Assembly (NCBI GenBank): GCA_034666985.1
Contig: JAXDKS010000012.1
Span: forward strand, 23,714 to 87,713
DNA length: 64,000 nucleotides
Direction: 5' to 3'
Source of the DNA: Acidobacteriota bacterium
GTDB lineage: Bacteria > Acidobacteriota > Thermoanaerobaculia > Multivoradales > UBA5704
Under the pieces are notes generated by a model. The model was not told the origin of the DNA and ran no database searches. It was given only the letters and a program-made list of their open reading frames with translations. Below, piece after piece: positions 39,892-58,095 of this stretch. Position numbers and translations under genes: made by a program. Position 1 is the first letter of the stretch. Each line of letters begins with the position of its first letter.

Positions 39892-39914
39892 GATGGGTCT
39901 CAGGGTGGGATTTC

Positions 39915-40913
39915 TCACAGGGCGGACGTGCCAGGCGGCACCAGCTCGTCGATGCGCGCCGCCTCCTCGCCGGTCAACTGGACGTCGAGAGCGCCCAGAC
40001 TGTCCTCGAGCTGCTCCAGGGTGCGCGGACCGATGATGACAGAAGTCACGGCCGGATGGCGCAGGGCCCAGGCATTGGCGAGGCGGGCGAGGGAGACCCC
40101 CTTCCGCTCGGCGAGGGGAGCGAGCTGCTCCACGACGTCGAGGCGGCGCTGGAACTTGGGGTTCCCGATGTCGCCGACCCAGGTCTCGGAGCGCGTGCTG
40201 TCCTTGGGGTTGCCGGTCTCGCGGCGGTACTTGCCGGAGAGCCAGCCGCCTTCGAGGGGGCTCCAGACGATGTTGGCGAGGCCGAGCTTCCGGGTCATGG
40301 GGAAGTGCTCCAGCTCCATCGCCCGGCGCAGGATGCTGTAGGGCGGCTGCAGCGAGACGAACCGCTCCCAGCCGTGCCGCTCGCTGATCCACAGGGTCTC
40401 CACGATCTCCCAGGCTGAGAAGCGCTTCTCCCACAGCGCCTCGCCGGCGTAGTGGTTGGTGGAGAGGCCGAGATAGCGCACCTTGCCCTGGCGCACGAGA
40501 TCCGTCAGTGTCGAGAGGGTCTCCTCCATGGGGGTCGTCGGGTCCGGACGGTGGATCTGATAGAGGTCGATCACGTCCGTGCCGAGGCGGCGCAGGCTGT
40601 GCTCCACCTGCTCCTGAATGGCCTTGCGGGAGAGCCCCCGCTGGTTGGGGCCGGGCCCCACGGGCGCCCACACCTTGGTGGCGAGCACAACCTCCTCACG
40701 GCGGTCCTTGAGAGCCTTGCCGACGATGATTTCGGACTCGCCTTCGGAGTAGCCATTGGCGGTGTCGATGAAGTTGATGCCAGCCTCCAGGGCGCGGTGG
40801 ATGATGCGGATGCTTTCGTCGTGGTCCGCGTTGCCCCACTTGCCGAACATCATCGCCCCCAGGCAGAGCGGCGAGACCTTGAGGCCGGTGTGACCCAGAT
40901 TCCGGTAGTCCAC
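39915..40913 (-). CDS. aldo/keto reductase
   Basis: GLKVSPLCLGAMMFG and IDTANGY signatures. Confidence 0.85.
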   Translation of the reverse strand: MDYRNLGHTGLKVSPLCLGAMMFGKWGNADHDESIRIIHRALEAGINFIDTANGYSEGESEIIVGKALKDRREEVVLATKVWAPVGPGPNQRGLSRKAIQEQVEHSLRRLGTDVIDLYQIHRPDPTTPMEETLSTLTDLVRQGKVRYLGLSTNHYAGEALWEKRFSAWEIVETLWISERHGWERFVSLQPPYSILRRAMELEHFPMTRKLGLANIVWSPLEGGWLSGKYRRETGNPKDSTRSETWVGDIGNPKFQRRLDVVEQLAPLAERKGVSLARLANAWALRHPAVTSVIIGPRTLEQLEDSLGALDVQLTGEEAARIDELVPPGTSAL

Positions 40914-40976
40914 GCTTTCAAACCCCCGTTCGAAGATGTCCGCCCGCCAGCGCGGTCATCCTATTATGATTACCCC

Positions 40977-43061
40977 CTACCCCGTCGCCTGGTATTCCGC
41001 CCGCCGGATGCGCTCGTCGACGCTGCCGTGGAGGATCATCTCCCGGCATTCGAAGGCGGGCAGGGGCGGGCTGAAGAGGTAGCCCTGGAAGCGGTGGCAG
41101 CCCAGGCCCTCCAGCCAGCGCCACTGCTCCAGGGTCTCCACCCCTTCGGCGATGACGCCGATCGCCAGGCTCACCGCCAGGGCGATCACCGCCGCGGCCA
41201 CCTCCTCGCTGCCGCGCCCCCGGCCGAGGGTGTGGACGAAGGAGCGGTCCACCTTCAGCGTGTCGATGGGGAAGGTGGTCAGGTAGGAGAGGGAGGAATA
41301 GCCGGTGCCGAAATCGTCGATAGCGATCCCGATGTCCAGGTCCTTGAGGTCGCGCAGCACGGCGAGCGTCGCTCCGGCGTTCTGCATGGCGAGCGTCTCG
41401 GTGATCTCCAGCACCAGGGCCGCGGGGGGGAGGCCCGTCTCCGCCAGCACGCCCTGGATGCGCTCCAGCAGGTCCGGCTGCTGGAAGGAGCGGGGAGAGA
41501 GGTTCACCGCCAGCCGCAGCTCCCCGGCCCCCGCCTGCCGCCACTCCTGGATCTCCCGGCAGGCGTGGCGCAGCACCCAGAGGTCCAGGGGCACGGCGAG
41601 GCCCGAGACGTCCGCGAGCCACAGGAACTCGCCCGGCGTCATCAGCCCGCGCACCGGGTGGCGCCAGCGCAGCAGCGCCTCGACCCCGTCGAGCACGCGG
41701 CGCCTGCCGTCGAGCACCGGCTGGTAGAAGAGCACCAGCTCGCCGGGTCCCTGAGCCAGGGCCTTGCGCAGGTCCGCCTCCAGGGAGAGCTGCTCCAGGG
41801 TGTTGGAGTCCATGCTGGCGGCATAGATCTGATAGTCGTCCCGCCGCGTCTCCTTGGCCCGGTACATGGCGATCTCGGCCCGCTTGAGGAGGTCCTCGGC
41901 GTTGTCGCCGTCCTCCGGGAAGCGGCTGATGCCCAGGCTCGCCGTCAGGTAGATCTCCCGTCCCTGGAGGGCGAAGGGGAGGCGGATGATCTCCAGCAGC
42001 TTCTCGGCGACGCGGAAGACCGCGGCCTCGCTCTCCGCCGACACGATCAGCACGGCGAACTCGTCCGCCGCCAGGCGCGCCAGCAGGTCGGCGTCCGGCA
42101 GGTGGGTGCGCAGCCGCTCGGCCACCGACTTCAGCAGCTCGTCGCCGTAGCGGTTGCCCAACGACTCGTTGACTTTCTTGAAGCGGTCGAGGTCGAGGAA
42201 GAGCACCGCCACCCGGTCGCCGCGGGCGGCCGTGCGCGCGAGAGCCGCAGCGAGCGACTGCACCAGCAGGTTGCGGTTCGGCAGGTCGGTGAGGACGTCG
42301 TGGTAGGCGAGGTGCTCGATGCGGTCCGAGGCGGCGAGCACCCGCTGCCGCTCGTCCTCCAGCAGCCAGACGACCATGCCGAGCCCGATCAGCGCCTCGA
42401 GCAGGAAGTCGAACGGACCCAGGTAGACGACGTAGGACAGGGACTGCGGCAGGATGCGCGGGGCCAGGAGGATCAGCAGGTAGTGGAGCTGATGCAGCCC
42501 GAAGAGCAGGAAGGAGCCCGCCACCAGGCCGCGTCCCATCCCCGGCGCGGGAGCGCGGCTGCGGCGGCGACTGCGGCGACTGCGCCAGACGCCCCAACTC
42601 GCGGCGAGGAACGCCACTCCCTGGAAGAGCAGGCGCAGGCCCACCCGCGCCAGCTCCCGCGAGTGGGAGTCGCTGCCGAGCGACGCGAAGACCGAGACCA
42701 GGGCGAGGAGGGCCAGAGCACCGAGCACGGCCGTCCACAGCCGCGCCGGAAGCTCCTGGCCGGTGACCACCTCCCAGGTGCCGAACAGCAGCAGGACCGC
42801 CTGCCAGTAGCCCGCCACCAGCCAGAGGATGGAGACGGCGAGGCGCAGCGGCACCGACGCTCCCATGTGGGAGGAGACGAGCAGCAGCGCCACGGCGCCG
42901 CCGGCCTGGGCCACGGAGAAGGCCCACCAGCTCCAAGCCCAGGTGAGGAGATAGTGCCGCCCGTAGGTACGGTAGAAGCCCACCAGCACCATCGCGAGGA
43001 CGACGGCGCCGAGGGCCTGGGCGAGATTGCTTGTGAAGATCACAAGCGTGCCGCTGACCAT
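40977..43061 (-). CDS. membrane sensor with degenerate GGDEF (AADEF) and EAL domain: probable c-di-GMP phosphodiesterase
   Basis: About 7 N-terminal TM helices. RLAADEF stands in place of GGDEF. The EAL domain has EALLRW, DDFGTGYSSLSYL and QGYLFS. Confidence 0.75.
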   Translation of the reverse strand: MVSGTLVIFTSNLAQALGAVVLAMVLVGFYRTYGRHYLLTWAWSWWAFSVAQAGGAVALLLVSSHMGASVPLRLAVSILWLVAGYWQAVLLLFGTWEVVTGQELPARLWTAVLGALALLALVSVFASLGSDSHSRELARVGLRLLFQGVAFLAASWGVWRSRRSRRRSRAPAPGMGRGLVAGSFLLFGLHQLHYLLILLAPRILPQSLSYVVYLGPFDFLLEALIGLGMVVWLLEDERQRVLAASDRIEHLAYHDVLTDLPNRNLLVQSLAAALARTAARGDRVAVLFLDLDRFKKVNESLGNRYGDELLKSVAERLRTHLPDADLLARLAADEFAVLIVSAESEAAVFRVAEKLLEIIRLPFALQGREIYLTASLGISRFPEDGDNAEDLLKRAEIAMYRAKETRRDDYQIYAASMDSNTLEQLSLEADLRKALAQGPGELVLFYQPVLDGRRRVLDGVEALLRWRHPVRGLMTPGEFLWLADVSGLAVPLDLWVLRHACREIQEWRQAGAGELRLAVNLSPRSFQQPDLLERIQGVLAETGLPPAALVLEITETLAMQNAGATLAVLRDLKDLDIGIAIDDFGTGYSSLSYLTTFPIDTLKVDRSFVHTLGRGRGSEEVAAAVIALAVSLAIGVIAEGVETLEQWRWLEGLGCHRFQGYLFSPPLPAFECREMILHGSVDERIRRAEYQATG

Positions 43062-43101
43062 GTGAAGCTATCTTAGTGCATCAGGAAGAGAGCAAGCGAA
43101 C

Positions 43102-44058
43102 CTACGAGCGCAACAGGAAGAATCCCGCCAGGGCCAGCGCGATCACCAGGACCGCGAGCCCGATCCAGACGAGCGTCTTCTTGCCGCTCCCCTCACCGCC
43201 CCGCAGCAGCGAGCCGGCTTCGCGGATCTCGGTGAGCACCCGCAGGCTCAGGGTCTCCTCCAGCCGCTCCAGGGCGGCCAGCAGGTCGTTCGCGCTGGCG
43301 TAGCGCTCGTCGGGCCGGCGCGCCAGGCAGCGCAGGGCCACCACGTCCACCTGCGGCGGCAGCTCGGGGTTGAGCTGGCTCGGCAGGCCGAGCTTGGGGC
43401 CGGGCGAGCGGCCGGTGAGCATCTCGTGGAAGATGGCGCCGGCGGAGTAGAGGTCCGCGCGGGCGTCGACCGCGGCGCTGCCCTCCAGGATCTCGGGCGC
43501 CAGGTAGTAGAGGGCGCCGAGGCGGATCTCGCCGGTGGAGAGCGTGGCCGTGAGGTTCTGGCCCGAGATCGACTCGAAGCCGCTGACCCCCAGGTCCGCC
43601 ACTTTGACGGTGGCGAAGTCGGGCGAGATCAGGACGTTGCGCGGCGTCAGGCTGCGGTGCAGTTGGCCGTGCTGATGGGCGTGGGCCAGCCCCCGGCAGA
43701 CGCCACGCATCACCGCGAAGGCCTCGGGCAGGGAGACGCGCCGCTGCTTCAAAACCCGATCGAGGGACGTCCCCTCCACCATCTCCATGGCGAGGTAGAG
43801 CTGCTCGCCGTGCTGGCCCGTCCCCAGGACGCGCACCAGGTGCGGGTGCCGGGTGATCGGGGCCACCGTGGCCAGCTCGCGGTGGAAGCGCTCCACCGTG
43901 GCGGGATCGCCCGTGAGGCGGGGCGGGAAGAGCTTGAGGGCCACGGGGCGGCCCTTGGGATCCTCCCCCCGGTAGACGGTCGACTGCCCGGCCTTGCCGA
44001 GCAGCTCGCGCACGCGGTAGGGACCGATGGCGTCAGGAATTGGAGGTGGCTGTGGCAT
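43102..44058 (-). CDS. membrane-anchored Ser/Thr kinase-like protein, predicted pseudokinase
   Basis: Kinase fold with VALK, E in alphaC and DLG. The catalytic loop reads HRSLTPRN, not HRDLKPxN (Asp and Lys missing). C-terminal TM. Confidence 0.6.
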   Translation of the reverse strand: MPQPPPIPDAIGPYRVRELLGKAGQSTVYRGEDPKGRPVALKLFPPRLTGDPATVERFHRELATVAPITRHPHLVRVLGTGQHGEQLYLAMEMVEGTSLDRVLKQRRVSLPEAFAVMRGVCRGLAHAHQHGQLHRSLTPRNVLISPDFATVKVADLGVSGFESISGQNLTATLSTGEIRLGALYYLAPEILEGSAAVDARADLYSAGAIFHEMLTGRSPGPKLGLPSQLNPELPPQVDVVALRCLARRPDERYASANDLLAALERLEETLSLRVLTEIREAGSLLRGGEGSGKKTLVWIGLAVLVIALALAGFFLLRS

Positions 44059-44070
44059 CGCTCTCGAAGA

Positions 44071-45366
44071 TCAGTTGACCTCAAAGATCATAACCGTGTC
44101 CCCGATCGCAATGCGATCGAAAGGCTTCAGAGCCGCCCGGGCCTCCAGCTTGCCGTTGACGCGGGTACCGTGGCTGCTGCCCAGATCGGTCATCACCCAG
44201 GAGCCGCCCTCCCAGGCGAGTTGGAGGTGCTCCTTGCTGGCGTTGGGATCGGTGAGTGGCAGGGCGCAGGCGCGGGAGCGGCCGACCAGGACCGGCTTGC
44301 CGCCGTCGAGGGCCACGGACCGGCCGCGCTCCGCCCCTTCGGCCACGTAGAGCCGGGCTGGCGGCGGGCCCTCCTGCGCCGCCTTCCGTGCCGCCGCGTG
44401 CCGTGGGTGCTCCGGCCGCGAGATCTCCAGCGTCTGGATGGGGTAGGGGATGACGATCCCTTCCTTGTGGAACTCCTCCCAGACGCGGGACCGCACGTCG
44501 CTCGCGATCTTCGGCCCCTGCGCCATGTCCTCGATCCAGATCCGCAGCTCGTAGAGGACGGCGCTGGGATCGAAGGAGAGGAGATAGACGTCCGGCGCCG
44601 GCTTGTCCAGCACCCCCATCACGGCGGCGGCGCAGTCGAGCAGCACCCGGCGCACGTGGTACGGCGGCTCGTCGAAGTGGGCCGCCACCTTGACCCGCTC
44701 CAGGTGCAGCGGGTGCGGATAGTAGAAGTTGAGCACCCGCTCGTCGGCCAGCTTGCTGTTGGGGATCACCAGGTTGTCGTTGTCCCGCGTCCGCAGGTGG
44801 GTGGTGCGCCAGGTGATGGCCATCACCCGCCCCTCCTGCTCGCCCACCCGGATCCAGTCGTTGATGCGGAACGGCTTTTCGACGCTGATCACCAGGCCGG
44901 CGAAGAAGTTGCCGAGGATCGGCTGCAGCGCGAGGCCCAGCACCAGCGAGGTGACGGCGCTGGTGGCGATGAGCGGCGCCACGTCCAGCCTGGGGAAGGA
45001 AATGCGCAGCGTCACCAGGGCGGTGACCAGGTAGACGAGCAGCATGGTCACCGCCGGCAGCAGCGGCGGCAGGCGCATCCCCCGGCGGGCCGTGAGGTGC
45101 ACCTCGAACAGGTACATCCCCAGGAGCCGGAAGACGGCGATCAACCCGAGGAAGAGACTGGCCCAGCCCAGGATCTCCGCCATCGCGGCCGACTGATAGG
45201 CGGGCTCGATGAGGCGGAAGACCTCCAGCGCCGCCACCCCGGCTCCCACGTAGAGCGGGAAGGCGAGCTGGCGCACCCAGAAGAAGCGCCGGCCGAACGC
45301 GGCCACGGCCACGATCAGCAGCGAGAGCAGGCCGGCGCTCCCCAGGACGGCGAGGGTCATCCGCAA
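44071..45366 (-). CDS. MscS-family mechanosensitive channel fused to C-terminal FHA domain
   Basis: TM helices plus the MscS beta-domain (GLVISVEKPFRINDWIRV). C-terminal FHA (GRSRACALPL...SKEHLQL...GSSHGTRVNG...IGDTVMIFE). Confidence 0.7.
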   Translation of the reverse strand: MRMTLAVLGSAGLLSLLIVAVAAFGRRFFWVRQLAFPLYVGAGVAALEVFRLIEPAYQSAAMAEILGWASLFLGLIAVFRLLGMYLFEVHLTARRGMRLPPLLPAVTMLLVYLVTALVTLRISFPRLDVAPLIATSAVTSLVLGLALQPILGNFFAGLVISVEKPFRINDWIRVGEQEGRVMAITWRTTHLRTRDNDNLVIPNSKLADERVLNFYYPHPLHLERVKVAAHFDEPPYHVRRVLLDCAAAVMGVLDKPAPDVYLLSFDPSAVLYELRIWIEDMAQGPKIASDVRSRVWEEFHKEGIVIPYPIQTLEISRPEHPRHAAARKAAQEGPPPARLYVAEGAERGRSVALDGGKPVLVGRSRACALPLTDPNASKEHLQLAWEGGSWVMTDLGSSHGTRVNGKLEARAALKPFDRIAIGDTVMIFEVN

Positions 45367-45397
45367 GACGGCACCTCCAAAGAGATCAGGAAGGATT

Positions 45398-48262
45398 CTA
45401 TCCCGCGGACTCCGTCTTCGCCGTCCGCCGGATGCGGCGCCAGGCGATCGCCACCATCAGGACGATCAGGAGGATCAGGGCGCATCCGGCGATCATCCAC
45501 ACCCAGGGCGGCACGTTCCAGCCCTTGCGCCCGCCGGGCAGGGGCACGAGGTCGCCGTCGCCCAGCACGACGATGCCGGCCCAGGCCGCGGCCGGAGCGC
45601 CGGCGGCGATGAGGTCCTTCTGGGCAGCCTGGGCCGCGGCGGCCACGGAGAGGCCGTGGCCCAGGTGGCGATAGAAGTGGTCGAAGAAATCCGCGGCCTC
45701 GTCGTCCCGCAGCCGCCACAGGCTCGCCACCACGGTGTTGGCTCCGGCCTGGAAGAAGGCGCGGGCGAGGCTCATCACCCCCTCGCCCCGCAGCACCACG
45801 CCGGTGTTGCTGCTGCACGCGGAGAGGACGACGATGCGGCCGCGCAGGTCGAGGTCCACGATCTCGCGGATCTGGAGCAGGCCGTCCTGGTTCGCGGCCC
45901 CGGGAGCGAGGAGCACGCCGGAGCGGTCGGGGTTCACCTCGTCGGTGACGGCGTGGGTGGCGAAGTGGAGGACGCCGAAGCGTTTGAGGGGGGCCGACTT
46001 GACCCAGGATTCCGAGGCTTCGTCGCCCAGGCGCCGGACGCTGCCGCCCCCCATCTCGCCGACCACGGAGTAGCTCTCGCGGCGGGCGTAGGGGAGCGGC
46101 CCCAGGCGCATGCCCGAGCCGAAGACGGCGGCCCTCTCCTTCGCGGCGACCACCCGCGGGCCGCCGCTGTCACCGCCGGGCAGGGGAGGATCGGCGAGGG
46201 CGAGGGCGGGCACCGCGGCCACGGCCGGCCGCTCCCCCGTCCAACTCAGCCAGAGGGTGGCGGAGGGGATCTCCGTCAGCTCGAAGCGGACGGCGAGAGG
46301 CGGCGCCTTGGGATTTGCCCGCAGTGCCGCGAATGGGAGCTGATGAAGGACGTCGTCGGGAATGATCGTCAGCCTGCGAATCCCCGGAGGCAGCTCGGCG
46401 AGGGGGCGCTCCAGGAGCTGCCGGTAGAGGCTCGCGGCCGGCGCGGCTTCGGAGCCGTCCCGCCGGTCGAACATGCCGGTGAAGAGACGCCCGGCGGCCC
46501 GCAGCTCGCCGCGGCCCGGCAGGCGATAGACCCGGGTGCCGCCGCGAGTGGTCACCAGGAGCCAGGAGCCGCCGGCGAAGCCGCCCCGTTCATCCTCCCA
46601 GGAAGCGACCTGGAAGGAGAGGAGGGCTTCGTCGGCACCCAGCGCCCGGCGTACCCGGGAGAGGGTGGCGAAGTCGGGCCGGCGCGGGCTCGCCAGGGCC
46701 GGTGCCGTCCGGGCGAGCTGATTTCGGAGCTCCGCCTCCTGGATCTCCAGCGCCTCGAGCTCCCGCATCGCCGTCGTCCGCTCCGCGGCGGGAAGATCGG
46801 GGTTCATGAGCTGCCGCTGGACGCCGGAGATCCGCTCCATCACGGCGCCGCGCCGCTGCCGGAGGGGAGCCGCCGCTGCCGGAACGGCGTGAGCGGCTTC
46901 GAGGGTGTCGACGAGGCTCCGGGACCGGAGGCGCTCGGCGACCTGGAACGCCCGCTCCAGATCTTCGAGTCTGGTGCTGGCGGCTTCGAGCAGGCGGCCG
47001 GAGAGCCAGTAGTAATCCTCGGACCAGGTGGAGAAGGCTTCGGCCTTGCCCGAGGTCGCCGCCTGCTGGTCCCGCAGGGCTTCGATGGCGCTCAGCGCCG
47101 AGCGCGAGTCTTCCATGGCCCGGTCTCCCGAGCCCGAAGCCCAGCTCACGCGCATCCTCTCCCGCCAGGCGTAGGCCATGGACCAGTAATCCTCGGAGCC
47201 CCGGGCCAGGGCCAGAGATCGATCAATAGACTGCTGGGCGGCGCGGGGATCGGTGGGTGCCAGGAAGCGGGCGAGGGCGTTGAGACAGTAGCTCTGATCG
47301 CGCGCCGTATCGACCGCGGCGAGGCAGGCCTCGAAGTGCTGGCGGGCGTCGGTTCCCTTGGCTAGCATCCCGAGGATTAAATGTGCCTTGGACTGGATGC
47401 CGCGATTGGGGGCCGCGATCGCAGCGTCCAAGGCCGCCTGCGCTAATCGCGCGACCTCCTGCCGGCCTTCTTCGCTAGGTAGCTCCGCCGTCCGATCAAG
47501 CACGGCGCGGGCCATGCCATAGCGGGCTCCGGCCTCGCCATAACGATCTCCTTCCGTCACCGCCAGCTCCGCCATCCTGCGGAAAGCCTGCAGCCCCTCG
47601 TCATAGCGTCCGAGCTCCAGGCTCAGGTTGCCCAGTGCGCTCAGATAGTCACGCTTCATGGAAGAGGTGACGCCGGGGAATCCGGGGAAGAGGACGGCTT
47701 CGGTCTGGCGGAGCAGGATGTAAGCTTGCTCCAGGTCCTTGCCCACGGCCCAGAGGTGCCGGGCCTGGAGGGTCCGGGCGCGGGCGATCAGCTCGGGCTG
47801 GCCCGAGGCCTCCGCGACCTTCATGACCCGCTCGGCCTGGGCTCCCGCTTCCTCCACCTTCCCGGCATTGAACAGGAGGCGGTGGACGTTGGACCTGGCG
47901 AGGACCTCACCCCGGGCTTCCTGCCGGGTGGCGAATCCCTCCGCGGCTGCGCGGAACAGCTCGCCGGCATGGGCCGTGTCCAGGTAGGCCAGGTAGAGGG
48001 TGGGCCAGGGGCTTCCCGGATACTGTTTCAGCAAGCCCTGGAGATGCGCCGCCCCCTCCTCCGGTTTTTTCAGCGCCTCGCCGGTCTCCTCGAAGCACTT
48101 GGCGGTTTCCTCGCCCTCCGGCCGGCTGCCGGCGAGCCGCTCGCAGACGTCGAAATTTGCCGGCGGCTGCGGCGGAGGCGCAGCCGCCGTGGAGGGAGAA
48201 GCTGCCAGAAGGAATGCCAGGATCGCCGAGAGCATCGTGGAAAGTCTACCGTAGCGCGGCAA
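45398..48262 (-). CDS. TPR-repeat protein with CHAT (caspase-like) domain and C-terminal TM anchor (paralog of 7886-10672)
   Basis: Signal peptide (alternative start 48235). TPR repeats. HFATHAV...VVLSACSS gives the His/Cys dyad. Terminal hydrophobic helix. Confidence 0.7.
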   Translation of the reverse strand: MPRYGRLSTMLSAILAFLLAASPSTAAAPPPQPPANFDVCERLAGSRPEGEETAKCFEETGEALKKPEEGAAHLQGLLKQYPGSPWPTLYLAYLDTAHAGELFRAAAEGFATRQEARGEVLARSNVHRLLFNAGKVEEAGAQAERVMKVAEASGQPELIARARTLQARHLWAVGKDLEQAYILLRQTEAVLFPGFPGVTSSMKRDYLSALGNLSLELGRYDEGLQAFRRMAELAVTEGDRYGEAGARYGMARAVLDRTAELPSEEGRQEVARLAQAALDAAIAAPNRGIQSKAHLILGMLAKGTDARQHFEACLAAVDTARDQSYCLNALARFLAPTDPRAAQQSIDRSLALARGSEDYWSMAYAWRERMRVSWASGSGDRAMEDSRSALSAIEALRDQQAATSGKAEAFSTWSEDYYWLSGRLLEAASTRLEDLERAFQVAERLRSRSLVDTLEAAHAVPAAAAPLRQRRGAVMERISGVQRQLMNPDLPAAERTTAMRELEALEIQEAELRNQLARTAPALASPRRPDFATLSRVRRALGADEALLSFQVASWEDERGGFAGGSWLLVTTRGGTRVYRLPGRGELRAAGRLFTGMFDRRDGSEAAPAASLYRQLLERPLAELPPGIRRLTIIPDDVLHQLPFAALRANPKAPPLAVRFELTEIPSATLWLSWTGERPAVAAVPALALADPPLPGGDSGGPRVVAAKERAAVFGSGMRLGPLPYARRESYSVVGEMGGGSVRRLGDEASESWVKSAPLKRFGVLHFATHAVTDEVNPDRSGVLLAPGAANQDGLLQIREIVDLDLRGRIVVLSACSSNTGVVLRGEGVMSLARAFFQAGANTVVASLWRLRDDEAADFFDHFYRHLGHGLSVAAAAQAAQKDLIAAGAPAAAWAGIVVLGDGDLVPLPGGRKGWNVPPWVWMIAGCALILLIVLMVAIAWRRIRRTAKTESAG

Positions 48263-48335
48263 TCCTCACCTGAAAACACAAAGCGGGCGGCTCCGGGGAG
48301 TCGCCCGCTTTGTGGAAGAGTCGCTGGCGAAGACT

Positions 48336-48464
48336 TCAGGGCTTGATCGGGCCCGGATCGGTATCCGGCGGAGCGGTGCAGCAGAGCTTGACCGGGTCGT
48401 CCTTGCCGTTGCCGCCAGTGCCGGTGGGTACAGTCGTGTTCTTAGGGTCGGTCGCGGTGCTCAT
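48336..48464 (-). CDS. small peptide ORF (41 aa, Thr/Pro/Gly/Asp-rich, KLCC) with canonical SD
   Basis: AAGGAG sits 8 nt before the ATG in an AT-rich pocket. Product MSTATDPKNTTVPTGTGGNGKDDPVKLCCTAPPDTDPGPIKP. Confidence 0.4.
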   Translation of the reverse strand: MSTATDPKNTTVPTGTGGNGKDDPVKLCCTAPPDTDPGPIKP

Positions 48465-48718
48465 GAGATATCTCCTTCAAGGATTCAGATCGTTTTTGTC
48501 TAGCTTTTTCAAGTCTCTCGGGTGGCTTCTCTGCCCCCGATGGGAGTAGCAACGAAGGCCGAGCCCCGATCCCCTCACTTCTTCCGACATAACGTATGAG
48601 ACGGGAGAAAGTTTCTTTTGGTTCCCATGTAAGTCGTTGATATAAAGCAGTGAAAGCGTTTCCAGTCCAACACCGGAAAAAGGCGGGCCGTGGCCCGCCC
48701 CGAGCTTCGGGCGATCGA

Positions 48719-49393
48719 TTACTGCAGGAGGGTGGTGAAGGTGGGGGAGGTCACGCGGTGGCCGTCGGGGAAGACGGCCTCGACCTGCCAGAGGAGCTTC
48801 GCGCCCGCCGGCAGACCGGCGAGGGCGGCCTCGGGAAGGCGGTACTCGGCAGCCGTCCGGCCCTGGGCGCTGGCGACCTGACGGAGATCCTCGGTGCTGA
48901 CGCTCACGTCGTAGGAAGCGGCGCCGGCGAGGGGAGTCCAGCGCAGCACGGCGCCCTGGCGCGGCAGGGCCTGGCCCGCGGGAAGGAGGGAGCGCACCTG
49001 CGCCGCCTCGCCCTCGCGATAGGTGGGAGGCTGGGTGGGCACGATCGCCTCGCGGTAGACGCCCACGGCGACCAGCAGGCCGGCGGCCAGGGCAGCGGCC
49101 GCGAACAGCGGGCGCCACTGCCCGAAGCGGCCCACGATCACCTTGCCGGGTGCCGTCTGCATCTGCTCGGCGCCCTGGCGACCGACCTCTACGGCCAAGC
49201 GCCAGTCCTCGGCACAGGCCTCGCAGCGGGCAGTGTGGTCCACCACCTCGCGCATCTCGTGCGGCGGCAGCTCGCCGCGCACGGCGGCCCAGATCGTTTC
49301 GGGGGCCGGGCAGTCTTCGGGCGCCGGGGTGGCTGCGGCCGGGGCGGTGAAGGCGGCGCGCAACCAGGCGAGATCCTGATTGTCCTGAGTCAT
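48719..49393 (-). CDS. zinc-binding (ZAS-like) anti-sigma factor, single TM
   Basis: H-x3-C-x2-C (VDHTARCEAC), then TM (AAAALAAGLLVAVGV). Directly downstream of the ECF sigma. Confidence 0.6.
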   Translation of the reverse strand: MTQDNQDLAWLRAAFTAPAAATPAPEDCPAPETIWAAVRGELPPHEMREVVDHTARCEACAEDWRLAVEVGRQGAEQMQTAPGKVIVGRFGQWRPLFAAAALAAGLLVAVGVYREAIVPTQPPTYREGEAAQVRSLLPAGQALPRQGAVLRWTPLAGAASYDVSVSTEDLRQVASAQGRTAAEYRLPEAALAGLPAGAKLLWQVEAVFPDGHRVTSPTFTTLLQ

Positions 49394-49531
49394 GGCTGCA
49401 CCTCTCTTTGGTCCTTCCTCTCGCAACCGAAATCAGAGTGCTTCAAGGGATTCCTGCTGCCGCTCCGGCAAGCCCACGGGGCGCCTCGGCGGGTTCGTCA
49501 AGAGAGGAACGCTCCGGCCCGGCCCTTTCCC

Positions 49532-50125
49532 TCACTGCGCAACCTGGTTGCGAATCCCCTTCGTGCCCAGGCAGTCGCGCAGGTCGGCCATCCCCCGGTA
49601 GACCAGGTTCTCGGCCTTCTTCGCCGTCCAGCCCATGAGCTTGCCGACCTCGGGCACGCTGTGGCCCTGGAGGTTGAGGGTGACGGCGTGGCGCCGGGGC
49701 GGCACCATGAGCCCCAGGCAGTCGCGGATGGCCCGTCCGACCTGGCGTCCGGCCGAGGCGCGCTCGGGGTCCGGGTCCGGCGCGGCGGGATCGTAGGAGA
49801 TGGGCTCGTCCTCGTTGCTACCCCCCTCGAAGGAGACCTCCTGACGCCGTCGCAATCGCCGGACCTCGTCGATCATGGCGCTGTAGGCCGCCTTGCGGAG
49901 GTAGAAGGCGTTGAGCTCGGCCGTCCCCTCCTTCTTGCGCTGGATCTCCATCACCCGCATCATGGCGACCTGCACCAGGTCGTCGGCCTTGTCGGCCATC
50001 CAGCGCGGGCAGACGCGGTCCACCGCGCGCACCAGGTCCCGGTGGATCTGCGCGTAGTCCTTCGAGCTTCCCCAGGGTCCTTTCTGTGAGTCTGAGATCA
50101 CCGTTCTCCACCCGAGACGGCGCAT
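49532..50125 (-). CDS. ECF RNA polymerase sigma factor
   Basis: Region 2 (DLVQVAMMRV) and region 4 HTH (LQGHSVPEVGKLMGWTAKKAENLVYRGMADLRDCL). Confidence 0.7.
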   Translation of the reverse strand: MRRLGWRTVISDSQKGPWGSSKDYAQIHRDLVRAVDRVCPRWMADKADDLVQVAMMRVMEIQRKKEGTAELNAFYLRKAAYSAMIDEVRRLRRRQEVSFEGGSNEDEPISYDPAAPDPDPERASAGRQVGRAIRDCLGLMVPPRRHAVTLNLQGHSVPEVGKLMGWTAKKAENLVYRGMADLRDCLGTKGIRNQVAQ

Positions 50126-50330
50126 AGCCTACTACGACGGCGGCTGTGCTGAGAGCGGCGAGGGGAGTTGGCGGCGGAGAGGGACCCCCGCCGCCAGAGA
50201 GCTTCGGGGCCCGGGCATCCGGAAAGCGCGGGCGGGCTCATCCCATCCGGCTCAATCACCAGGACGAAGGAAGGGGGCGACGGTATTAGAACAGCCCTGG
50301 CAAGCAGGCCAGTTGCCGATCCCGTCATAA

Positions 50331-50783
50331 ATGCTGCGGACTCTGCTAGACTCTCTGCGGATGAAGCCAGAGACTGAGCATATCGTCCAGATCCTCAAGA
50401 CCGCGATGCGGATCCTGGGTTGCACCAACCGGGAGATGGAGCGGAGGCTGGGCGTGTCCGGCGGCTATCTCAGCCGTCTGTTCGCGGGCACCATGGAGCT
50501 CAGGTTCGAGCACGTCGTGGACATCGCGGAGGCCCTGGGGCTCTCCGTCGAGGAGATCTTCCGGTTCGCCTACCCGGAGCCTCGGGCGCCATCCGGCGCG
50601 GCCGTGCGCCTCCAGGAGGCCACGGGAGGATTCCAGTCCCGGAGCGCGGCTCCCCTCGGCGTGCCGCCGGCGGAAGCCCTGGCTCCCTCCACCAGCACGG
50701 TGCTGGAGGCCGAGTTGGAGAAGATGATGCTGCGCACGTTCCGCAAGTTCTTCACGAATATGGCGAAGACCGCCGACGAGTAG
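50331..50783 (+). CDS. XRE-family HTH transcriptional regulator
   Basis: Cro/C1-type HTH (TNREMERRLGVSGGYLSRLFAG). Alternative start at MKPETEH (50361). Confidence 0.6.
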   Translation: MLRTLLDSLRMKPETEHIVQILKTAMRILGCTNREMERRLGVSGGYLSRLFAGTMELRFEHVVDIAEALGLSVEEIFRFAYPEPRAPSGAAVRLQEATGGFQSRSAAPLGVPPAEALAPSTSTVLEAELEKMMLRTFRKFFTNMAKTADE

Positions 50784-51028: not shown

Positions 51029-52396
51029 CTACCGCCCGGGTGTCTCCCAGGCCCGGGCTTCGAAGGCTGTCAGCGGCCCGTGCTCGATCCGTCGCAGATA
51101 GCCCTTCACCTCTTCCACCATCGCCACCGTCGCGACCCTCACCTCACAGGCGGTGCGCAGCAGCATCACGGCTCCCAGCGCTTCCCGCTCGATCCCCAGC
51201 CGGAGGAATGCCTGCGAGGCTTCGAGGACGACCTCCCCGGCCTCCCCGGCCTTGTGTTGCGCCAGCAGGGCCGCGGCCAGATCGAGGGAGAAGAGGGCCG
51301 CGTCGTAGGGCCGGTCCGCCTCGGTGAAGCCCCGCACCACCTCCCGGAAGATCGCCTCGGCGCGGTCCCGCTTCTGAAGGCCGTAGTCGATGCGCCCCTC
51401 GAGCACGCGGAGGCGGAGGCGGTTGAGCCGCCCCTCGACGGCGGCGAAGGCGGCGGAGTGGAGGAAGAGGAACCTGCGGGCCTCGCCGTAGCGGCCGCAG
51501 TCGACGAGGAAGTGGAGCTGGTTGTGCAGCGCCGCGTGCTCCAGGGCGGGATCGCGGCCCAGCTCCAGCAGGTCCGCGCCGCGGCGCACGAGGCTGATCC
51601 CCTCTTCCGGATCGCCCGCGTTGCCGGTGTAGAGACCCAGGGTGATCAGCGCCCGGCCGGTGAGGTGGGCGTCGCCGCTGTCCTGATGGAAGGCGAAGGC
51701 CTTGAGGAGGTTGTTGCGGGCGGGGCCGAACTGCCGCCGGTCGGCGAACAGGGAGGCCTCCAGCTCGAGCATCCGGACCTCCAGGAAGCGGTCCCCCGTG
51801 CCCAGCTCGAAGAGCCGGCGGGCGTCGTCCAGGGAGATCCTGGCCGAGTCCAACTGGTCCAGCACCCGGTAGGCGTTGCCCAGCTCCGCATGCGCCCGGC
51901 ACTGGAAATCGGAGACTCGCTCCGCGCCGTAGCGCACGGCGTCGAGCCGCTCGGCGGCCTTCACGGCCAGCCAGGCGAACTGCGCCATCAGCCGGGGATT
52001 CTCGTGGCGGAGCGACCAGCTCCGGGCGAGCAGGGCCTCGAACAGGGCGAGGTCGCCGGTCTTGCGGGGGAGCTTCTCCACTGCCTCCAGCCCACCCTGC
52101 GCCAGGATCCGCTCCAGCTTCCGGGCCTCGGTCCGCTGCCCCTGCAGGTGGCGGTCGAGCTTGCAGGCGGCGCGGATGGCCCGCTCGATCGCCGTGTCGT
52201 ACGCGGCGTCCTCCTCGGCCGTGAGCTCGGGGGGGCCCGGCTCGAGGCCGAGGAGAAGGCGCAACGAGGTGGGAGCGGCGTCGAGGCAGCTCACGCAGGG
52301 CGCCAGCAGGTGAGAGAGGATCTCCCGCGCCCGCGCGGCGGACAGGCTGCCTGGAGTCAGAGCCGAGAGCTCTTCACGGCTCGGATGGTCGTTCAA
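51029..52396 (-). CDS. TPR-repeat protein (putative regulator) with Cys-containing N-terminus
   Basis: TTG start with AAGGAGG 5 nt upstream. N-terminal ...LLAPCVSCLD, then many TPR-like helices. Confidence 0.55.
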   Translation of the reverse strand: MNDHPSREELSALTPGSLSAARAREILSHLLAPCVSCLDAAPTSLRLLLGLEPGPPELTAEEDAAYDTAIERAIRAACKLDRHLQGQRTEARKLERILAQGGLEAVEKLPRKTGDLALFEALLARSWSLRHENPRLMAQFAWLAVKAAERLDAVRYGAERVSDFQCRAHAELGNAYRVLDQLDSARISLDDARRLFELGTGDRFLEVRMLELEASLFADRRQFGPARNNLLKAFAFHQDSGDAHLTGRALITLGLYTGNAGDPEEGISLVRRGADLLELGRDPALEHAALHNQLHFLVDCGRYGEARRFLFLHSAAFAAVEGRLNRLRLRVLEGRIDYGLQKRDRAEAIFREVVRGFTEADRPYDAALFSLDLAAALLAQHKAGEAGEVVLEASQAFLRLGIEREALGAVMLLRTACEVRVATVAMVEEVKGYLRRIEHGPLTAFEARAWETPGR

Positions 52397-52509
52397 TCCC
52401 GCCTCCTTTTGGAGCAGGTATTGTCTCACAACCGGGAAAAAAAGACGACGGGAAAAAGGCCGGGGGCGGAGGGGTCGGCCCCGCCCCGGATTTTCGCGTG
52501 CATGACGCT

Positions 52510-52812
52510 TCACTTTTGGGGATCGACGCCCACGCTCGTCTCCGAAGGGGCCGGTGAAGGGGCGAGGGTGAGGTAGGCTCCGTTGGGATCGATCCCCGCG
52601 CTCCGCTTGCTCTCGATCCTCGAGTCCTGCCGGGCTGCCGGCGCTTGTTGCGCGCCGCCGGTCCATGGCCAGATCGCCGTGAGCCACTGCCACCCTTTGC
52701 CGAAGAGCCCGGGCTCGATCCTCATTCCGGCGGCGTGGGCCGGAGGGGCGAGAGCCAGGGCCAGGGTGAGAGCTGCCGCGGCGATCACGCGCCGATTCCG
52801 TCGCTGATCCAT
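52510..52812 (-). CDS. small secreted protein (100 aa)
   Basis: AGGAGGA SD. Signal peptide VIAAAALTLALALAPPAHAAG. Trp-rich mature part. Confidence 0.5.
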   Translation of the reverse strand: MDQRRNRRVIAAAALTLALALAPPAHAAGMRIEPGLFGKGWQWLTAIWPWTGGAQQAPAARQDSRIESKRSAGIDPNGAYLTLAPSPAPSETSVGVDPQK

Positions 52813-53110
52813 ATCTCCTCCTGATTCCGCGGAGCTGGCGGGGGCCGCCATGGCTCCACCGCCCGCGGATGCAACGTCCGTTGCCTGGGCATCCAGTTTG
52901 GCATGCCCCGGGAGCATTCCCTCCAGCCATGCCGCCAGAAGGAGTCCCTTCAATACGAAAGGTGTCCCGCTCTCGCTCGCTCGCGCCACCTACTTACCGA
53001 AGCACATGAACTTTTAGTCCGTGGCGACTCATGGTGCCGCGGGGTCCGAGCCGGAGGGAGCGGCCGCGGCGCCGGGGGACGACACGGCGATCCTTATGGG
53101 GGGAGACAAC

Positions 53111-54334
53111 ATGAATCCTGTCGTCAATTTCGGAGGGAACGTCGACTTCGAGTACCTGATCCTGGGGGCGGGGCCCGCGGGCCTGCAGATGGGCCACCAT
53201 CTCTCCCGTGCCGGCCACAGCTACCTGATCCTCGAAGCGGGGGACTGCCCCGGCCACTTCTTCAAGACGTCCCCACGGCATCGCACCCTGATCTTCGACC
53301 GGAGCTCGCTGCTCAGCGAGGGGGACGGCCGGCTGCTGTTCGAGGACTACAGCCGCAAGGGTTTCCCTTCCGCCGACGAGATGGTGCGGTACCTCGGCGA
53401 CTACGCCGACTTCCACGAGCTCAACGTCCGCTGCAACGCCCGTATCCTGCGGGTGGAGAAGCCCCGGCCGAGCCAGTTCCGTCTCCACGACGCCGCGGGC
53501 GTCCTCTACACCTGCCGCCGCCTGATCGTGGCCACCGGGGTCAACAAGCCCAACATCCTGGCGATCCCCGACATCGAGCCGGCGGAGAGCGATGTCGAGG
53601 TCCCGGTCGATCCCTGCGCCGGCTTCCGCTTCGACGACTCGATCTTCGCCGCGGACTGCCGGCCGGAGCTGGTGAGCGACGGCCGCTTCCCGGCCCAGAC
53701 GCCGGAGTGGGAGTCGGTCAACATACCCGGTCTGTACTTCGCCGGCGCCCTGATGCGGGCCAACGACGATGAGAAGCACACCTGCGGCTTCATTCACGGC
53801 TTCCGCTACAACGTGCGCTGCCTGTTCCGCATGCTGGAGAAGAAGCACCACCACCGGCAGTGGCCGGCGCGGGAGATCGAGCCCACGCCCGAGGGGCTGG
53901 TGGAGGCGGCGCTGGAGCGCATCAACCGCACCTCGGCCCTGTGGCAGCAGACCGGCTTCCTCCACGACGTCATCATGGTGGACGAGGGCTGGGACCGCGC
54001 CGTCTACTACGAGGAGATGCCCCTCGCCTACGTCCACGCCAGCGCGATCGGCGACAGCCGGCACTACTACACGGTCACCCTGGAGCTCGGGAAGGTCGAG
54101 GGCGGCCCCCTCCACCCGGCGATCCGGCGCTGGTGCGGCCGCCACCTCGTCTCCGAGCAGCGCCTCCTGGAAGACCTTTCCGGCGAGTGGAAGAAGCCGG
54201 ACTCCCACGTCGCTCCCCTGCGCTTCTTCTTCATGGAGCAGCTCCTGGAGACTGCCGAGATGGGCGGTCCCGAGATGGAAGAGATGATGGAGGAGGCCGT
54301 CCTGCAGCGCGAGCTGCACCGCGTAGCGGTGTAG
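53111..54334 (+). CDS. FAD/NAD(P)-binding flavin monooxygenase-like oxidoreductase
   Basis: YLILGAGPAGL (GxGxxG), a second dinucleotide motif (LIVATG) and HTCGF. FMO/pyridine-nucleotide-disulfide oxidoreductase-like. Confidence 0.65.
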   Translation: MNPVVNFGGNVDFEYLILGAGPAGLQMGHHLSRAGHSYLILEAGDCPGHFFKTSPRHRTLIFDRSSLLSEGDGRLLFEDYSRKGFPSADEMVRYLGDYADFHELNVRCNARILRVEKPRPSQFRLHDAAGVLYTCRRLIVATGVNKPNILAIPDIEPAESDVEVPVDPCAGFRFDDSIFAADCRPELVSDGRFPAQTPEWESVNIPGLYFAGALMRANDDEKHTCGFIHGFRYNVRCLFRMLEKKHHHRQWPAREIEPTPEGLVEAALERINRTSALWQQTGFLHDVIMVDEGWDRAVYYEEMPLAYVHASAIGDSRHYYTVTLELGKVEGGPLHPAIRRWCGRHLVSEQRLLEDLSGEWKKPDSHVAPLRFFFMEQLLETAEMGGPEMEEMMEEAVLQRELHRVAV

Positions 54335-54338
54335 GGGT

Positions 54339-56942: not shown

Positions 56943-56950
56943 GGATGGGT

Positions 56951-57814
56951 TCAGGCCGGACCCCCGCCGTCTTCGAGCAGGCGGTGCATGTAGTAGCGCA
57001 GCAGGGCCTCGGGGGTGGGATCGATCCCCAGGCGGTTGCAGCTCATGTGAGCGTAGGACCAGGCGAGGTAGACGAGGTCCTGCTGGATGCGCCCGGCCCC
57101 GTGCGCCTCGACGATGGCTTCAGCGACGGGCCGGCTCGCCTCGACGTAGCGCTCGGCGATCCGCACCCCCTCGGCGCCCCCCCAGAGCAACTCGGGGTCC
57201 CGGCTCTGCTCGCCGGAGAAGAGGTCCTGGAGGCCGTCCTTGAGCGCCTGGTATTTGGCCTCGATGGTCTCGATCTCCTTGTCACCCCAGGTCCCCATCT
57301 CATGGGTCCAGCGGTGACCGTGGGCGTAGAAGGCCAGGCGCTGCTGGCGGTCGAAGCGCAGCAGGTCGAGGAGCCGCTCGGTCATCAGTATCGAGATTTC
57401 GCGCCGGGTCTTGGCGAGGAGCCCCTGCCGCTCGGCCGCCATGAGGTCGAGGCAGGCGAGCGAGTCGTGGAGGAAGAGCTTCTCGGCGAGCGCCATGCCT
57501 TCGTCGCCGCCGTAGCGCTCGACCTCGCGGTCGTACTGGGCGTATTCGACCCCTTCGACGGCGCCCGAGTCGCGGAGGGGACCGAGGTCGCGGTCCACCC
57601 GCTCGAACACGGGGCCCGAGACCCAGTCGGGCTGGCCCAGGACGCGGAAGCGCACCTGCCAGCTCGGCACGTTGTAGCGGGCGAAGAAGAGGGAGTGGAG
57701 CTCGGGAGCGTCGCGGACGTCGCGCGCGATCGGCGTCACGAAGTCGGCGAGGATGCGCTCGTGCTGCTCGCGGGGGGCGTAGAGCAGGGTGAAGAGACAG
57801 AGCTGATCGTCCAA
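56951..57814 (-). CDS. LanB C-terminal elimination-domain protein (SpaB_C / thiopeptide-type bacteriocin biosynthesis domain)
   Basis: FFARYNVPSWQVRFRV and YDREVERYGGDEGMALAEKLF match the conserved core of the elimination domain. 287 aa. TTG start. Confidence 0.65.
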   Translation of the reverse strand: MDDQLCLFTLLYAPREQHERILADFVTPIARDVRDAPELHSLFFARYNVPSWQVRFRVLGQPDWVSGPVFERVDRDLGPLRDSGAVEGVEYAQYDREVERYGGDEGMALAEKLFLHDSLACLDLMAAERQGLLAKTRREISILMTERLLDLLRFDRQQRLAFYAHGHRWTHEMGTWGDKEIETIEAKYQALKDGLQDLFSGEQSRDPELLWGGAEGVRIAERYVEASRPVAEAIVEAHGAGRIQQDLVYLAWSYAHMSCNRLGIDPTPEALLRYYMHRLLEDGGGPA

Positions 57815-58054: not shown

Positions 58055-58095
58055 GGAGTTCTCCTTTCGCGGGGGCTTGCGAGCCCCCCAGACGG

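Follow-up and report, generated by a model that had tools for sequence, protein, structure and literature searches.

FHA domains dock on the phosphorylated activation loops of PknB. In Mycobacterium tuberculosis the membrane transporter Rv1747 carries cytoplasmic FHA domains and shares an operon with PknF, a Hanks-type kinase that regulates it (PMC3138270), and the membrane-associated pseudokinase MviN is phosphorylated in trans by PknB and then bound by FhaA, regulating a membrane process (PMC12599244). [quoted passage not shown] Among TPR-CHAT proteins, DdvA of Myxococcus xanthus is a zinc-binding anti-sigma (ZAS) factor fused to a periplasmic TPR-CHAT moiety with a His-Cys dyad, may be its own site-1 protease, and is stated to be the only characterised TPR-CHAT anti-sigma, with homologues confined to Myxococcota and one Comamonas (PMC11506125); in Craspase, Cas7-11 works with the TPR-CHAT protein Csx29, which cleaves Csx30, a controller of a sigma factor of the extracytoplasmic function (ECF) type (PMC10028731). 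Here we describe a locus, from an Acidobacteriota bacterium of the soil group Thermoanaerobaculia, in which genes reminiscent of both groups stand side by side: an ECF sigma/ZAS anti-sigma/TPR-CHAT cassette, and an MscS-like channel with a C-terminal FHA domain (MscS-FHA) paired with a pseudokinase. The window, that is, the whole stretch of DNA analysed, spans 64,000 nucleotides (positions 23,714 to 87,713 of contig JAXDKS010000012.1, assembly GCA_034666985.1).

Seven co-directional genes, all on the minus strand, occupy 40977-50125 and encode, in 5' to 3' order, the ECF sigma, the ZAS anti-sigma, a 42-residue open reading frame (ORF), the TPR-CHAT protein, MscS-FHA, the kinase-like protein and a GGDEF-EAL protein. 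An original prediction, made from this stretch of DNA alone, had taken the first six, each found where it was placed, for one assembly in which a phospho-dependent scaffold links membrane tension sensing to the sigma/CHAT circuit; the GGDEF-EAL gene (40977-43061), which was left out, belongs with the channel and the pseudokinase. The best overall explanation, to which we give a probability of about 0.6, is that the region consists of two independent signalling units, unit A (45406-50160, also called cassette A below) and unit B (40977-45366), which are neighbours by chance in this lineage and would work by the mechanisms proposed below. Comparisons draw on 52 loci from a scan of species-representative genomes, 47 of them from Acidobacteriota relatives, and on 10 further loci from a metagenome scan with the CHAT protein; intergenic gaps in these fetched loci are estimates, gene starts having been set by simple rules, and topologies were called from hydropathy and the positive-inside rule. 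Functional statements, including every protein contact and every step of phosphorylation, proteolysis or transcription, are drawn from sequence, synteny and one predicted structure.

The two units come apart in most genomes. Among the 32 other loci with enough upstream sequence, the CHAT cassette adjoins the channel in only one, L033. In the complete chromosome OY970330.1 the cassette (279-292 kb) and the channel (330-351 kb) lie ~45 kb apart, and in the complete chromosome OY969112.1 they are found at 6.25 Mb and 0.96-0.98 Mb, respectively, ~1.8 Mb apart. L002 and L003, the closest relatives lacking the cassette, are 86-87% identical over unit B, and their blastn alignment stops at 45405, at 8 nt from the CHAT stop codon, while homology to the cassette-bearing L033 runs from 38664 to 50160 at ~87% nucleotide identity; relative to these close relatives, cassette A is thus an indel of 45406-50160. 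The order sigma/anti-sigma/small ORF/CHAT is found in nine loci, among them L033, L054, L055, L056, L058, L074, L075 and L076, and is partly kept in L061-L063; the flanks differ in every locus and include ribosomal protein genes, an ABC permease, a gene resembling those for nonribosomal peptide synthetases and a second CHAT gene. Cassette A is therefore a separate, relocatable unit that recurs at unrelated places in other genomes. In addition, the predicted location of the CHAT protein is the periplasm, and that of the FHA and pseudokinase domains the cytoplasm.

The rare adjacency, the indel edge at 45405, the distances in the two chromosomes and the different compartments leave the proposed link from tension sensing to the sigma/CHAT circuit unsupported; what survives of the scaffold is the pairing of the FHA channel with the pseudokinase. 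We regard as highly improbable a single circuit of all six genes, with FHA and pseudokinase as a phospho-scaffold that relays tension to the sigma/anti-sigma/CHAT switch. The shared strand, the short gaps, the interval of 31-37 nt between CHAT and MscS-FHA that holds no terminator, and the presence of the same arrangement in the related species L033 all speak for such a circuit, but each unit is also complete and conserved alone, and synteny largely refutes their union. Gene adjacency in a single genome was misleading here, a lesson for annotation.

What does weigh against full independence in this lineage is that the native region upstream of MscS-FHA has been replaced: homology to cassette-free loci reaches no further than 39 nt ahead of the MscS-FHA start codon, nothing is left of the ~115-nt ancestral intergenic region, and no terminator-like hairpin separates CHAT from MscS-FHA. 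Transcriptional coupling of unit B to cassette A by read-through is thus possible in this lineage. The insertion may even amount to a recent regulatory capture, in which the cassette displaced the channel promoter and read-through from the small-ORF/CHAT transcript placed MscS-FHA, the pseudokinase and the EAL protein under envelope-stress control; the retention of the arrangement in L033 at ~87% nucleotide identity fits this, but an internal promoter inside the CHAT 3' end is possible and the sigma-70 consensus scan was empty in either direction, and we consider capture unlikely. That scan covered 40.8-50.5 kb and returned no sites; a simple terminator scan caught the hairpins only partly.

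Within unit B, pairing is constant. MscS-FHA lies directly upstream of the pseudokinase gene in all 42 Thermoanaerobaculia loci with at least 1.3 kb of upstream sequence, a count that takes in closely related metagenome-assembled genomes (MAGs), though these are species representatives, and the gap between the two genes is estimated at -21 to +42 nt across loci. Synteny is also kept downstream, where aldo-keto reductase, aminotransferase and SDR genes follow, and on the upstream side a divergent DinB gene is usually found. Because the two genes are adjacent in 42/42 loci, it is very likely that the FHA channel and the pseudokinase function together; the partnership is strongly supported by synteny, and the mechanism set out further on is one that we infer.

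The kinase-like gene (43102-44058, minus strand) starts 12 nt after the MscS-FHA stop codon and encodes 318 residues matching Pkinase at 7.9e-33, with a C-terminal transmembrane (TM) helix at residues 296-314 followed by just four residues, a predicted tail anchor. Its catalytic loop, HRSLTPRN (43636-43659, minus strand), aligns by HMMER with HRDVKPEN and HRDLKPQN of PknE and StkP, so that the catalytic Asp is replaced by Ser136 and the catalytic-loop Lys by Thr138; no Asp occurs at any position of the loop, and the second and third glycines of the GxGxxG loop are lost as well (GKAGQS). The protein thus lacks the HRD Asp and Lys and the GxGxxG motif of a competent Hanks-type Ser/Thr kinase. 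Retained are the beta3 Lys (VALK, K42), the alphaC Glu, the DFG Asp (as DLG) and the APE motif. The original description of the protein as catalytically dead through loss of Asp and Lys agrees with this alignment, with the qualification that the missing Lys is that of the catalytic loop, not the ATP-binding Lys of beta3. An exact sequence look-up of the protein returned no record.

Conservation across the family points the same way. All homologues at 68-95% identity belong to MAGs of Thermoanaerobaculia (Acidobacteriota). Among the 120 homologues listed, the catalytic-base position is Ser in 75, Asn in 22, Gly in 11, and otherwise His, Ala or Arg, with Asp in a single sequence, and the catalytic-loop Lys position is Thr in nearly all of them and in every locus-derived sequence. 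Mean column identity of the family is nevertheless 78%; K42, D155, T170, T172, T175 and I178 are invariant, E61 and N141 nearly so, and the Thr-rich activation segment LTATLSTGEI is invariant. High conservation combined with a drifting catalytic base is what one would expect if catalysis was lost under strong selection for another function, and the assignment as a pseudokinase, a kinase fold with the HRD Asp missing and the VAIK Lys and DFG Asp present, is supported at the sequence level. T170 and T172 fall where, we assume, PknB-type kinases autophosphorylate, and T175-G-E-I178 matches what we take to be the pT-x-x-I preference of many FHA domains.

A still active enzyme, phosphorylating the channel or itself by a non-canonical mechanism, would account for the very high conservation and for the retention of the beta3 Lys, the alphaC Glu, the DxG Asp, the catalytic-loop Asn and the APE motif, as well as for a deeper clade (46-50% identity) in which HRDLTPRN and DFG are kept, although its glycine-rich loop is even more degenerate. 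The drift of the catalytic base among Ser, Asn, Gly, His, Ala and Arg with no conserved substitute, the near-universal Thr in place of the catalytic-loop Lys and the loss of two of three glycines make this very unlikely.

The upstream gene (44071-45366, minus strand) encodes the 431-residue channel, with matches to MS_channel_2nd (8.9e-22), MS_channel_3rd (3.5e-11) and FHA (1.2e-12). The protein aligns with residues 38-281 of E. coli MscS, and with MscK and MscM, over TM3, the beta domain and the C-terminal domain, has at least four hydrophobic helices, and is near-invariant among orthologues in TM3 and the beta domain. This architecture places it in the MscS family; gating by tension is a prediction from that membership. 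Its closest relatives outside the FHA-bearing group are ~500-residue MscS proteins of the bCNG type with a cNMP_binding domain (carried by P0144, P0147 and P0155), for which a search of the window protein gave no match, the FHA domain occupying that position. The FHA domain itself (~44080-44346, minus strand; residues 359-422) exceeds the PF00498 threshold of 20.7 bits with 48.5 bits, bearing out the original assignment, and aligns to the FHA domains of FhaA, GarA and Rv1747. The phosphothreonine-contacting GR (GRSR) and SxxH (SKEH) elements are invariant in ~40 orthologues.

Where the pair came from is indicated by its distant relatives. Full-length MscS-FHA proteins as distant as 35% identity were recovered by an exhaustive HMMER search, and in three of the five lineages examined at 35-42% identity the gene adjoins one of 576-647 codons for a Pkinase-TM-TPR protein. 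These partners share 37-41% identity with the pseudokinase and carry GxGGxG, VAIK, HRDLKPSN or HRDIKPTN, DFG and APE. As distant MscS-FHA genes thus pair with canonical receptor Ser/Thr kinases, the pseudokinase appears to descend from an active partner, and the simplest reading is an ancestral pair of MscS-FHA and receptor kinase that was kept in Thermoanaerobaculia while the kinase decayed stepwise. The losses there would comprise the ectodomain, the glycine-rich loop and the catalytic-loop Lys, with the HRD Asp lost additionally in the clade of the window.

The third gene, 40 nt downstream of the pseudokinase gene (40977-43061, minus strand), encodes a membrane-bound protein with GGDEF (4.9e-44) and EAL (3e-71) matches, in which the GGDEF motif is degenerate (AADEF) and the EAL motif intact. 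AADEF and EALLRW are found together in 15 of 17 orthologues examined, the other two showing the EAL motif alone, and the RxxD I-site, RSTD or RGTD in most orthologues, is lost in the window copy (PDAD). These motifs make cyclase activity unlikely and point to a phosphodiesterase with a regulatory pseudo-cyclase domain. The gene follows the pseudokinase in 19 of 37 loci and is thus a facultative member of unit B.

In the mechanism we propose, unit B would be an ancient, vertically inherited membrane module of Thermoanaerobaculia in which the pseudokinase serves as a regulatory channel subunit. Its activation-loop threonines would receive phosphate in trans from an active Hanks kinase of the genome, and the phosphorylated pseudokinase would then dock onto the seven FHA domains beneath the MscS vestibule and modulate gating or clustering, an action like that supposed for the cNMP-binding domain of the sister bCNG channels. 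In loci that have it, the EAL phosphodiesterase may couple channel state to the turnover of cyclic di-GMP (c-di-GMP). Two canonical Hanks kinases are encoded at the ends of the window, at 62884-63999 (plus strand; HRDVKPAN, DFG) and 1-1407 (minus strand; HRDLKPGN, DFG), and are candidate trans-acting kinases for the pseudokinase. More speculatively, the pair may be a partner-gated ion channel, its heptameric pore controlled not, or not only, by tension but through docking of a trans-phosphorylated or nucleotide-loaded pseudokinase on the FHA ring, a proposal we hold tentatively. If true, it would be the first direct link from Hanks-type phospho-signalling to an MscS channel, with the output passed on to c-di-GMP turnover.

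Several points count against phospho-dependent docking. Adjacency speaks for partnership and not for the way in which FHA and pseudokinase would bind, and unit B contains neither a phosphatase gene nor a dedicated kinase gene. The backbone-contacting Asn of the FHA motif S-x-N-G-T, moreover, is not conserved (His in the window; His, Lys, Phe, Tyr, Arg, Ser or Gly elsewhere) and is also absent in the distant MscS-FHA proteins that are paired with active kinases, so that binding may be atypical or phospho-independent. Co-evolution of the Asn loss with kinase death was considered and rejected, since the Asn is missing beside canonical kinases too.

Given this atypical FHA loop, the main alternative to phospho-docking is a constitutive complex, in which the pseudokinase is a phosphorylation-independent subunit or a nucleotide sensor and FHA binds it, or the channel linker, without phosphothreonine. 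The loss of the canonical Asn across the whole MscS-FHA family fits such a complex, as do the slightly higher score of the Yop-YscD_cpl model of non-canonical FHA domains on the window protein (53.4 bits, against 48.5 for FHA), the retention of the nucleotide-binding residues K42, E61, N141 and D155, and the slight overlap, of a few nucleotides, in several orthologue pairs, which points to coupled translation and stoichiometric assembly. The invariance of the phosphate-contacting Arg and Ser (GR, SxxH), the invariant activation-loop threonines with their pT-x-x-I-type motif and the active kinases found as ancestral partners argue the other way, and we hold the phospho-independent complex to be the less probable, though a serious, possibility. 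Phospho-dependent docking is retained below as the preferred mechanism of unit B.

Unit A opens with the sigma gene (49532-50125, minus strand; 197 residues), which heads every cassette at 68-94% identity. Its product scores 47.6 bits with TIGR02937 (cut-off 42.9; residues 27-186) and matches chains of M. tuberculosis SigE at 4e-06; Pfam Sigma70_r2 and r4_2 matches are weak and below the gathering score. With this profile and a cognate ZAS anti-sigma gene 105 nt downstream, the pair being present in all cassettes, the protein belongs with the ECF (group IV) sigma factors. The anti-sigma gene (48719-49426, minus strand) encodes a single-pass protein with a zf-HC2 domain (24.0 bits, threshold 22.2), a TM helix at residues 106-124 and a periplasmic domain of ~110 residues. 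C39 and H64-x3-C68-x2-C71 provide the ligands of a ZAS motif, in line with the zinc-binding HxxxCxxC anti-sigma originally proposed, and zinc binding and sequestration of the sigma factor are predicted. The true start is probably M12, at 49393, because orthologues begin there with M(T/I/N)QD.

The effector-like component is the 945-residue TPR-CHAT protein (45398-48235, minus strand; CHAT E = 3.6e-58). Its ORF extends to 48262, and the start is most likely the ATG at 48235, since both the public annotation (QOF89_898) and the orthologues use this ATG and the TTG at 48262 is not conserved in frame. In 43 CHAT sequences H757, H761 and C807 are invariant, supplying a His-Cys dyad, as are Cys47, Cys304 and Cys317, with Cys31 near-invariant. 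Residues 1-19 are hydrophobic and resemble a signal peptide, and a TM helix at 912-930 is followed by RRIRR, features which indicate that the protein is a periplasmic, membrane-tethered protease. An AlphaFold2 model (mean predicted local distance difference test score 81.6) is all-helical over residues 28-531 and alpha/beta afterwards, and Foldseek returned Csx29 as the best match (1.3e-11), DdvA as the third-best (3.4e-10) and separases at ~1e-9; NCBIfam also gives a weak match to Csx29. The His-Cys dyad, the TPR-like superhelix followed by CHAT and the fold resembling solved members together assign the protein to the TPR-CHAT proteases.

Between the anti-sigma and CHAT genes lies the small ORF (48336-48464, minus strand), whose ATG stands 7 nt from an AAGGAG Shine-Dalgarno (SD) sequence and whose 42-residue product ends in the conserved CCTAPPDTDPGPIKP; it is annotated as the hypothetical protein QOF89_899 in an Acidobacteriota MAG. 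The C-terminal 15 residues (CCTAPPDxDPGPIKP) are kept across seven loci, with synonymous changes in third positions, the N-terminal half diverges, and the SD-ATG context is invariant. Together with the 45-46-residue versions reported by gene callers in other assemblies and with the Pro-rich counterparts in more distant cassettes and before CHAT paralogues, these features show that the small ORF, predicted originally as an SD-bearing peptide gene, is a real gene. A homology search with the 42-residue peptide found itself alone, and its homologues were recovered by tblastn and regular expressions in the fetched loci.

Each TPR-CHAT paralogue examined has in front of it a small SD-bearing ORF of its own, with a Pro-rich and acidic C-terminus (for example L056 4060-4414; L057 2491-2643 and 5590-5829; L058 8860-9036). 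C-termini include two tandem copies of ...CCSPPPKDPPDG, and ...MPPQDPPKF..., ...MPPKEPPPPN and ...AAPPPETE; no signal peptide was found in the small ORFs before CHAT paralogues. The small protein could be a cytoplasmic regulator, a leader peptide sensitive to elongation factor P through its APPD and DPGP motifs, or, if exported, a ligand or substrate for TPR-CHAT, and one possibility is that each Pro-rich ORF encodes the cognate ligand, substrate or arrest peptide of its TPR-CHAT neighbour, a securin-like or pheromone-like partner. A role in termination stalling through a Pro or Gly as the last residue is weakened, as the distant small ORFs end otherwise.

The small ORF is flanked by conserved regulatory elements, all on the minus strand. 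A terminator-like GC hairpin with a U-run follows the anti-sigma gene (48676-48701; minimum free energy (MFE) -27.4 kcal/mol, z = -1.9), and the other cassettes also have a GC hairpin and T-run at this place. Next comes the motif GAAAC-N16-CGTTAT (48589-48615), whose only match in the 64-kb window this is, against 0.01 expected; RMAAC-N16-CGTWWT stands at the equivalent position in 10/10 loci that hold the spacer, and occurs only twice in the other 66 loci. The motif resembles ECF promoters, on what we take to be the consensus for the B. subtilis sigma-W/X/M type. The leader that follows (48465-48588, ~125 nt) has the blocks GTGAGGGGATCGGG, TTCGTT and GGGGCAGAG-AGCC-CCCG conserved in eight loci and is non-coding, because indels break any reading frame. 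Rfam gave no match on the anti-sigma-to-CHAT spacer, leader included; a structured RNA in the leader is not claimed, its consensus fold being weak, with one compensatory pair. Finally, an intrinsic terminator or attenuator lies between the small ORF and CHAT (48270-48314; MFE -30.2 kcal/mol, z = -5.5; followed by UUUGUGUUUU), and 7 of its 16 pairs show compensatory changes across eight loci, a value reached in 0/500 shuffles.

Two further conserved stretches accompany the cassette genes. TTGCCGCGCTGCGGTAGACT, 8-10 nt upstream of the CHAT ATG (window 48236-48262; L054-L063), is conserved whatever the frame and contains an in-frame stop codon in L054, and so is a DNA or RNA signal and not coding; it is possibly the -10-like TAGACT of a near-leaderless CHAT transcript. 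CGTCGTAGTAGGCTATG, at the sigma start codon (window 50123-50140), is kept in all cassettes (L033, L054-L056, L058), and further upstream all differs. No GAAAC-N16-CGT motif was found upstream of the sigma gene, so that sigma may not be autoregulated.

Taken together, unit A could be a self-contained, relocatable envelope-signalling cassette akin to a split DdvS/DdvA of M. xanthus. The periplasmic CHAT protease would sense a signal via its TPR array and clip the periplasmic domain of the anti-sigma at site 1, freeing sigma, which would fire the GAAAC-N16-CGTTAT promoter before the small ORF; read-through of the attenuator would then raise CHAT expression. This scheme has its own difficulties: the promoter is assigned by its likeness to the consensus of other ECF sigmas, a small protein that has no signal peptide would find it hard to meet a periplasmic protease, global template modelling scores of the CHAT model to Csx29 and DdvA are low (0.25-0.35), and PDB sequence searches with the anti-sigma and CHAT proteins gave no relevant matches and no sequence similarity to DdvA. 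PADLOC on the region returned generic kinase matches (PD-T4-6, mad6) and one weak CHAT match, no evidence for a defence system.

A second sigma/CHAT module lies elsewhere in the window, at 7.9-12.2 kb, and had been called paralogous to unit A. The architectures are indeed alike, but close paralogy does not hold: only 97 residues of the two CHAT proteins can be aligned (39% identity), the sigma and anti-sigma pairs are essentially unalignable, and on these grounds an origin of the modules as recent paralogues was rejected. The first module and its neighbours (window 4000-12200) have a GC content of 0.60-0.65 and a third-position GC content (GC3) of 0.75-0.78, compared with a GC3 of at least 0.9 in the rest of the window, and these lower values suggest that the segment was horizontally acquired. 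Its CHAT protein has a lipoprotein-type LLVAC signal, and an S8 subtilase gene follows at 5572-7881.

On the other side of cassette A, a divergent XRE-type helix-turn-helix gene (50331-50783, plus strand) and a gene for a 633-residue protein with a weak match to NsdA-like TPR regulators (51029-52930, minus strand; similar genes recur in several related loci) stand between the cassette and a cluster of the type that makes ribosomally synthesized and post-translationally modified peptides (RiPPs) at 53021-58269. The latter comprises a flavoprotein gene (53021-54334, plus strand), a split LanB-type dehydratase (54339-56942 and 56951-57814, minus strand) and two tandem Cys/Ser/Thr-rich precursor genes (57887-58051 and 58096-58269, minus strand; ...CNPGCGTSTTSHKCTCPISATTTGSLFTARTTN), with an M50 peptidase gene nearby (59231-59950). 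Membership of cassette A in this cluster is unsupported, as the cassettes of other loci have no LanB genes nearby. In L033 (3586-3834) and L054 (3582-3926) the product of the gene directly upstream of sigma is a Cys-rich peptide whose leader reads KLKLNRETLRNL...AAGG; these genes look like bacteriocin or RiPP precursors, which hints that the cassette may sometimes adjoin peptide-natural-product genes.

Little is understood of MscS-like channels that carry an added sensor domain, and the MscS-FHA and (pseudo)kinase pair offers a testable case of Ser/Thr phospho-control of an MscS-type pore. It also provides a lineage series, from active receptor kinase through HRD-retaining degenerate kinase to Asp-less pseudokinase, for studying how a pseudokinase retains the scaffolding role of a kinase once catalysis has gone. 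For its part, unit A extends the idea drawn from DdvA, that a CHAT protease triggers an ECF switch, to a split and widespread form outside Myxococcota with a previously unnoticed small protein. FHA domains, kinases and phosphorylation all go unmentioned in the 2026 review of MscS-like channels, no family in a 2025 review of bacterial pseudokinases (PMC12599244) is described from Acidobacteria or with an MscS or other mechanosensitive channel, and full-text literature searches, which cannot prove absence, found nothing on an MscS-FHA fusion or an MscS-associated pseudokinase. Both units are best called undescribed, with kin in Rv1747-PknF, MviN-FhaA and bCNG channels (unit B) and in DdvS-DdvA (unit A).

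Compared with these systems, unit A shares with DdvS/DdvA an ECF sigma, an N-terminal, cytoplasmic anti-sigma domain of the zinc-binding kind, one TM helix and a predicted periplasmic TPR-CHAT moiety of the separase/craspase type. It differs in that anti-sigma and TPR-CHAT are encoded by separate genes, the CHAT protein having its own putative signal peptide and C-terminal anchor, that the gene for the small Pro-rich protein, with its own promoter motif and two terminators, lies in between, and that no CRISPR genes or genes of cyclic oligonucleotide-based antiphage signalling systems (CBASS) are nearby; unit A is thus not of the single-polypeptide DdvA type and is a split analogue at most. Craspase likewise ties a TPR-CHAT protease genetically to a switch resembling sigma and anti-sigma, but Csx29 is cytoplasmic, RNA-activated and CRISPR-associated, none of which applies to unit A.

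Unit B, like Rv1747-PknF, combines a membrane transport protein bearing a cytoplasmic FHA domain with a Hanks-type partner, and the distant MscS-FHA genes with canonical kinase neighbours match the logic of that pair closely. Rv1747, however, is an ABC exporter with two N-terminal FHA domains, whereas unit B has an MscS-type channel with one C-terminal FHA domain, and in contrast to PknF its partner is predicted to be catalytically dead in Thermoanaerobaculia and is truncated after the TM helix. In MviN the pseudokinase is fused to a flippase, its motifs are fully degraded, its ATP site is occluded, and phosphorylation of a C-terminal tail recruits a soluble FHA protein; the pseudokinase of unit B, conversely, is stand-alone and tail-anchored, keeps its ATP-site residues and finds its FHA domain on the channel. 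Lastly, bCNG channels, the closest relatives of MscS-FHA that have no FHA domain, likewise append a ligand-binding domain to the MscS core after the cytoplasmic vestibule, but theirs is a cNMP_binding domain and no partner gene is known for them, whereas MscS-FHA is accompanied by a pseudokinase with which it has very likely formed a functional pair.

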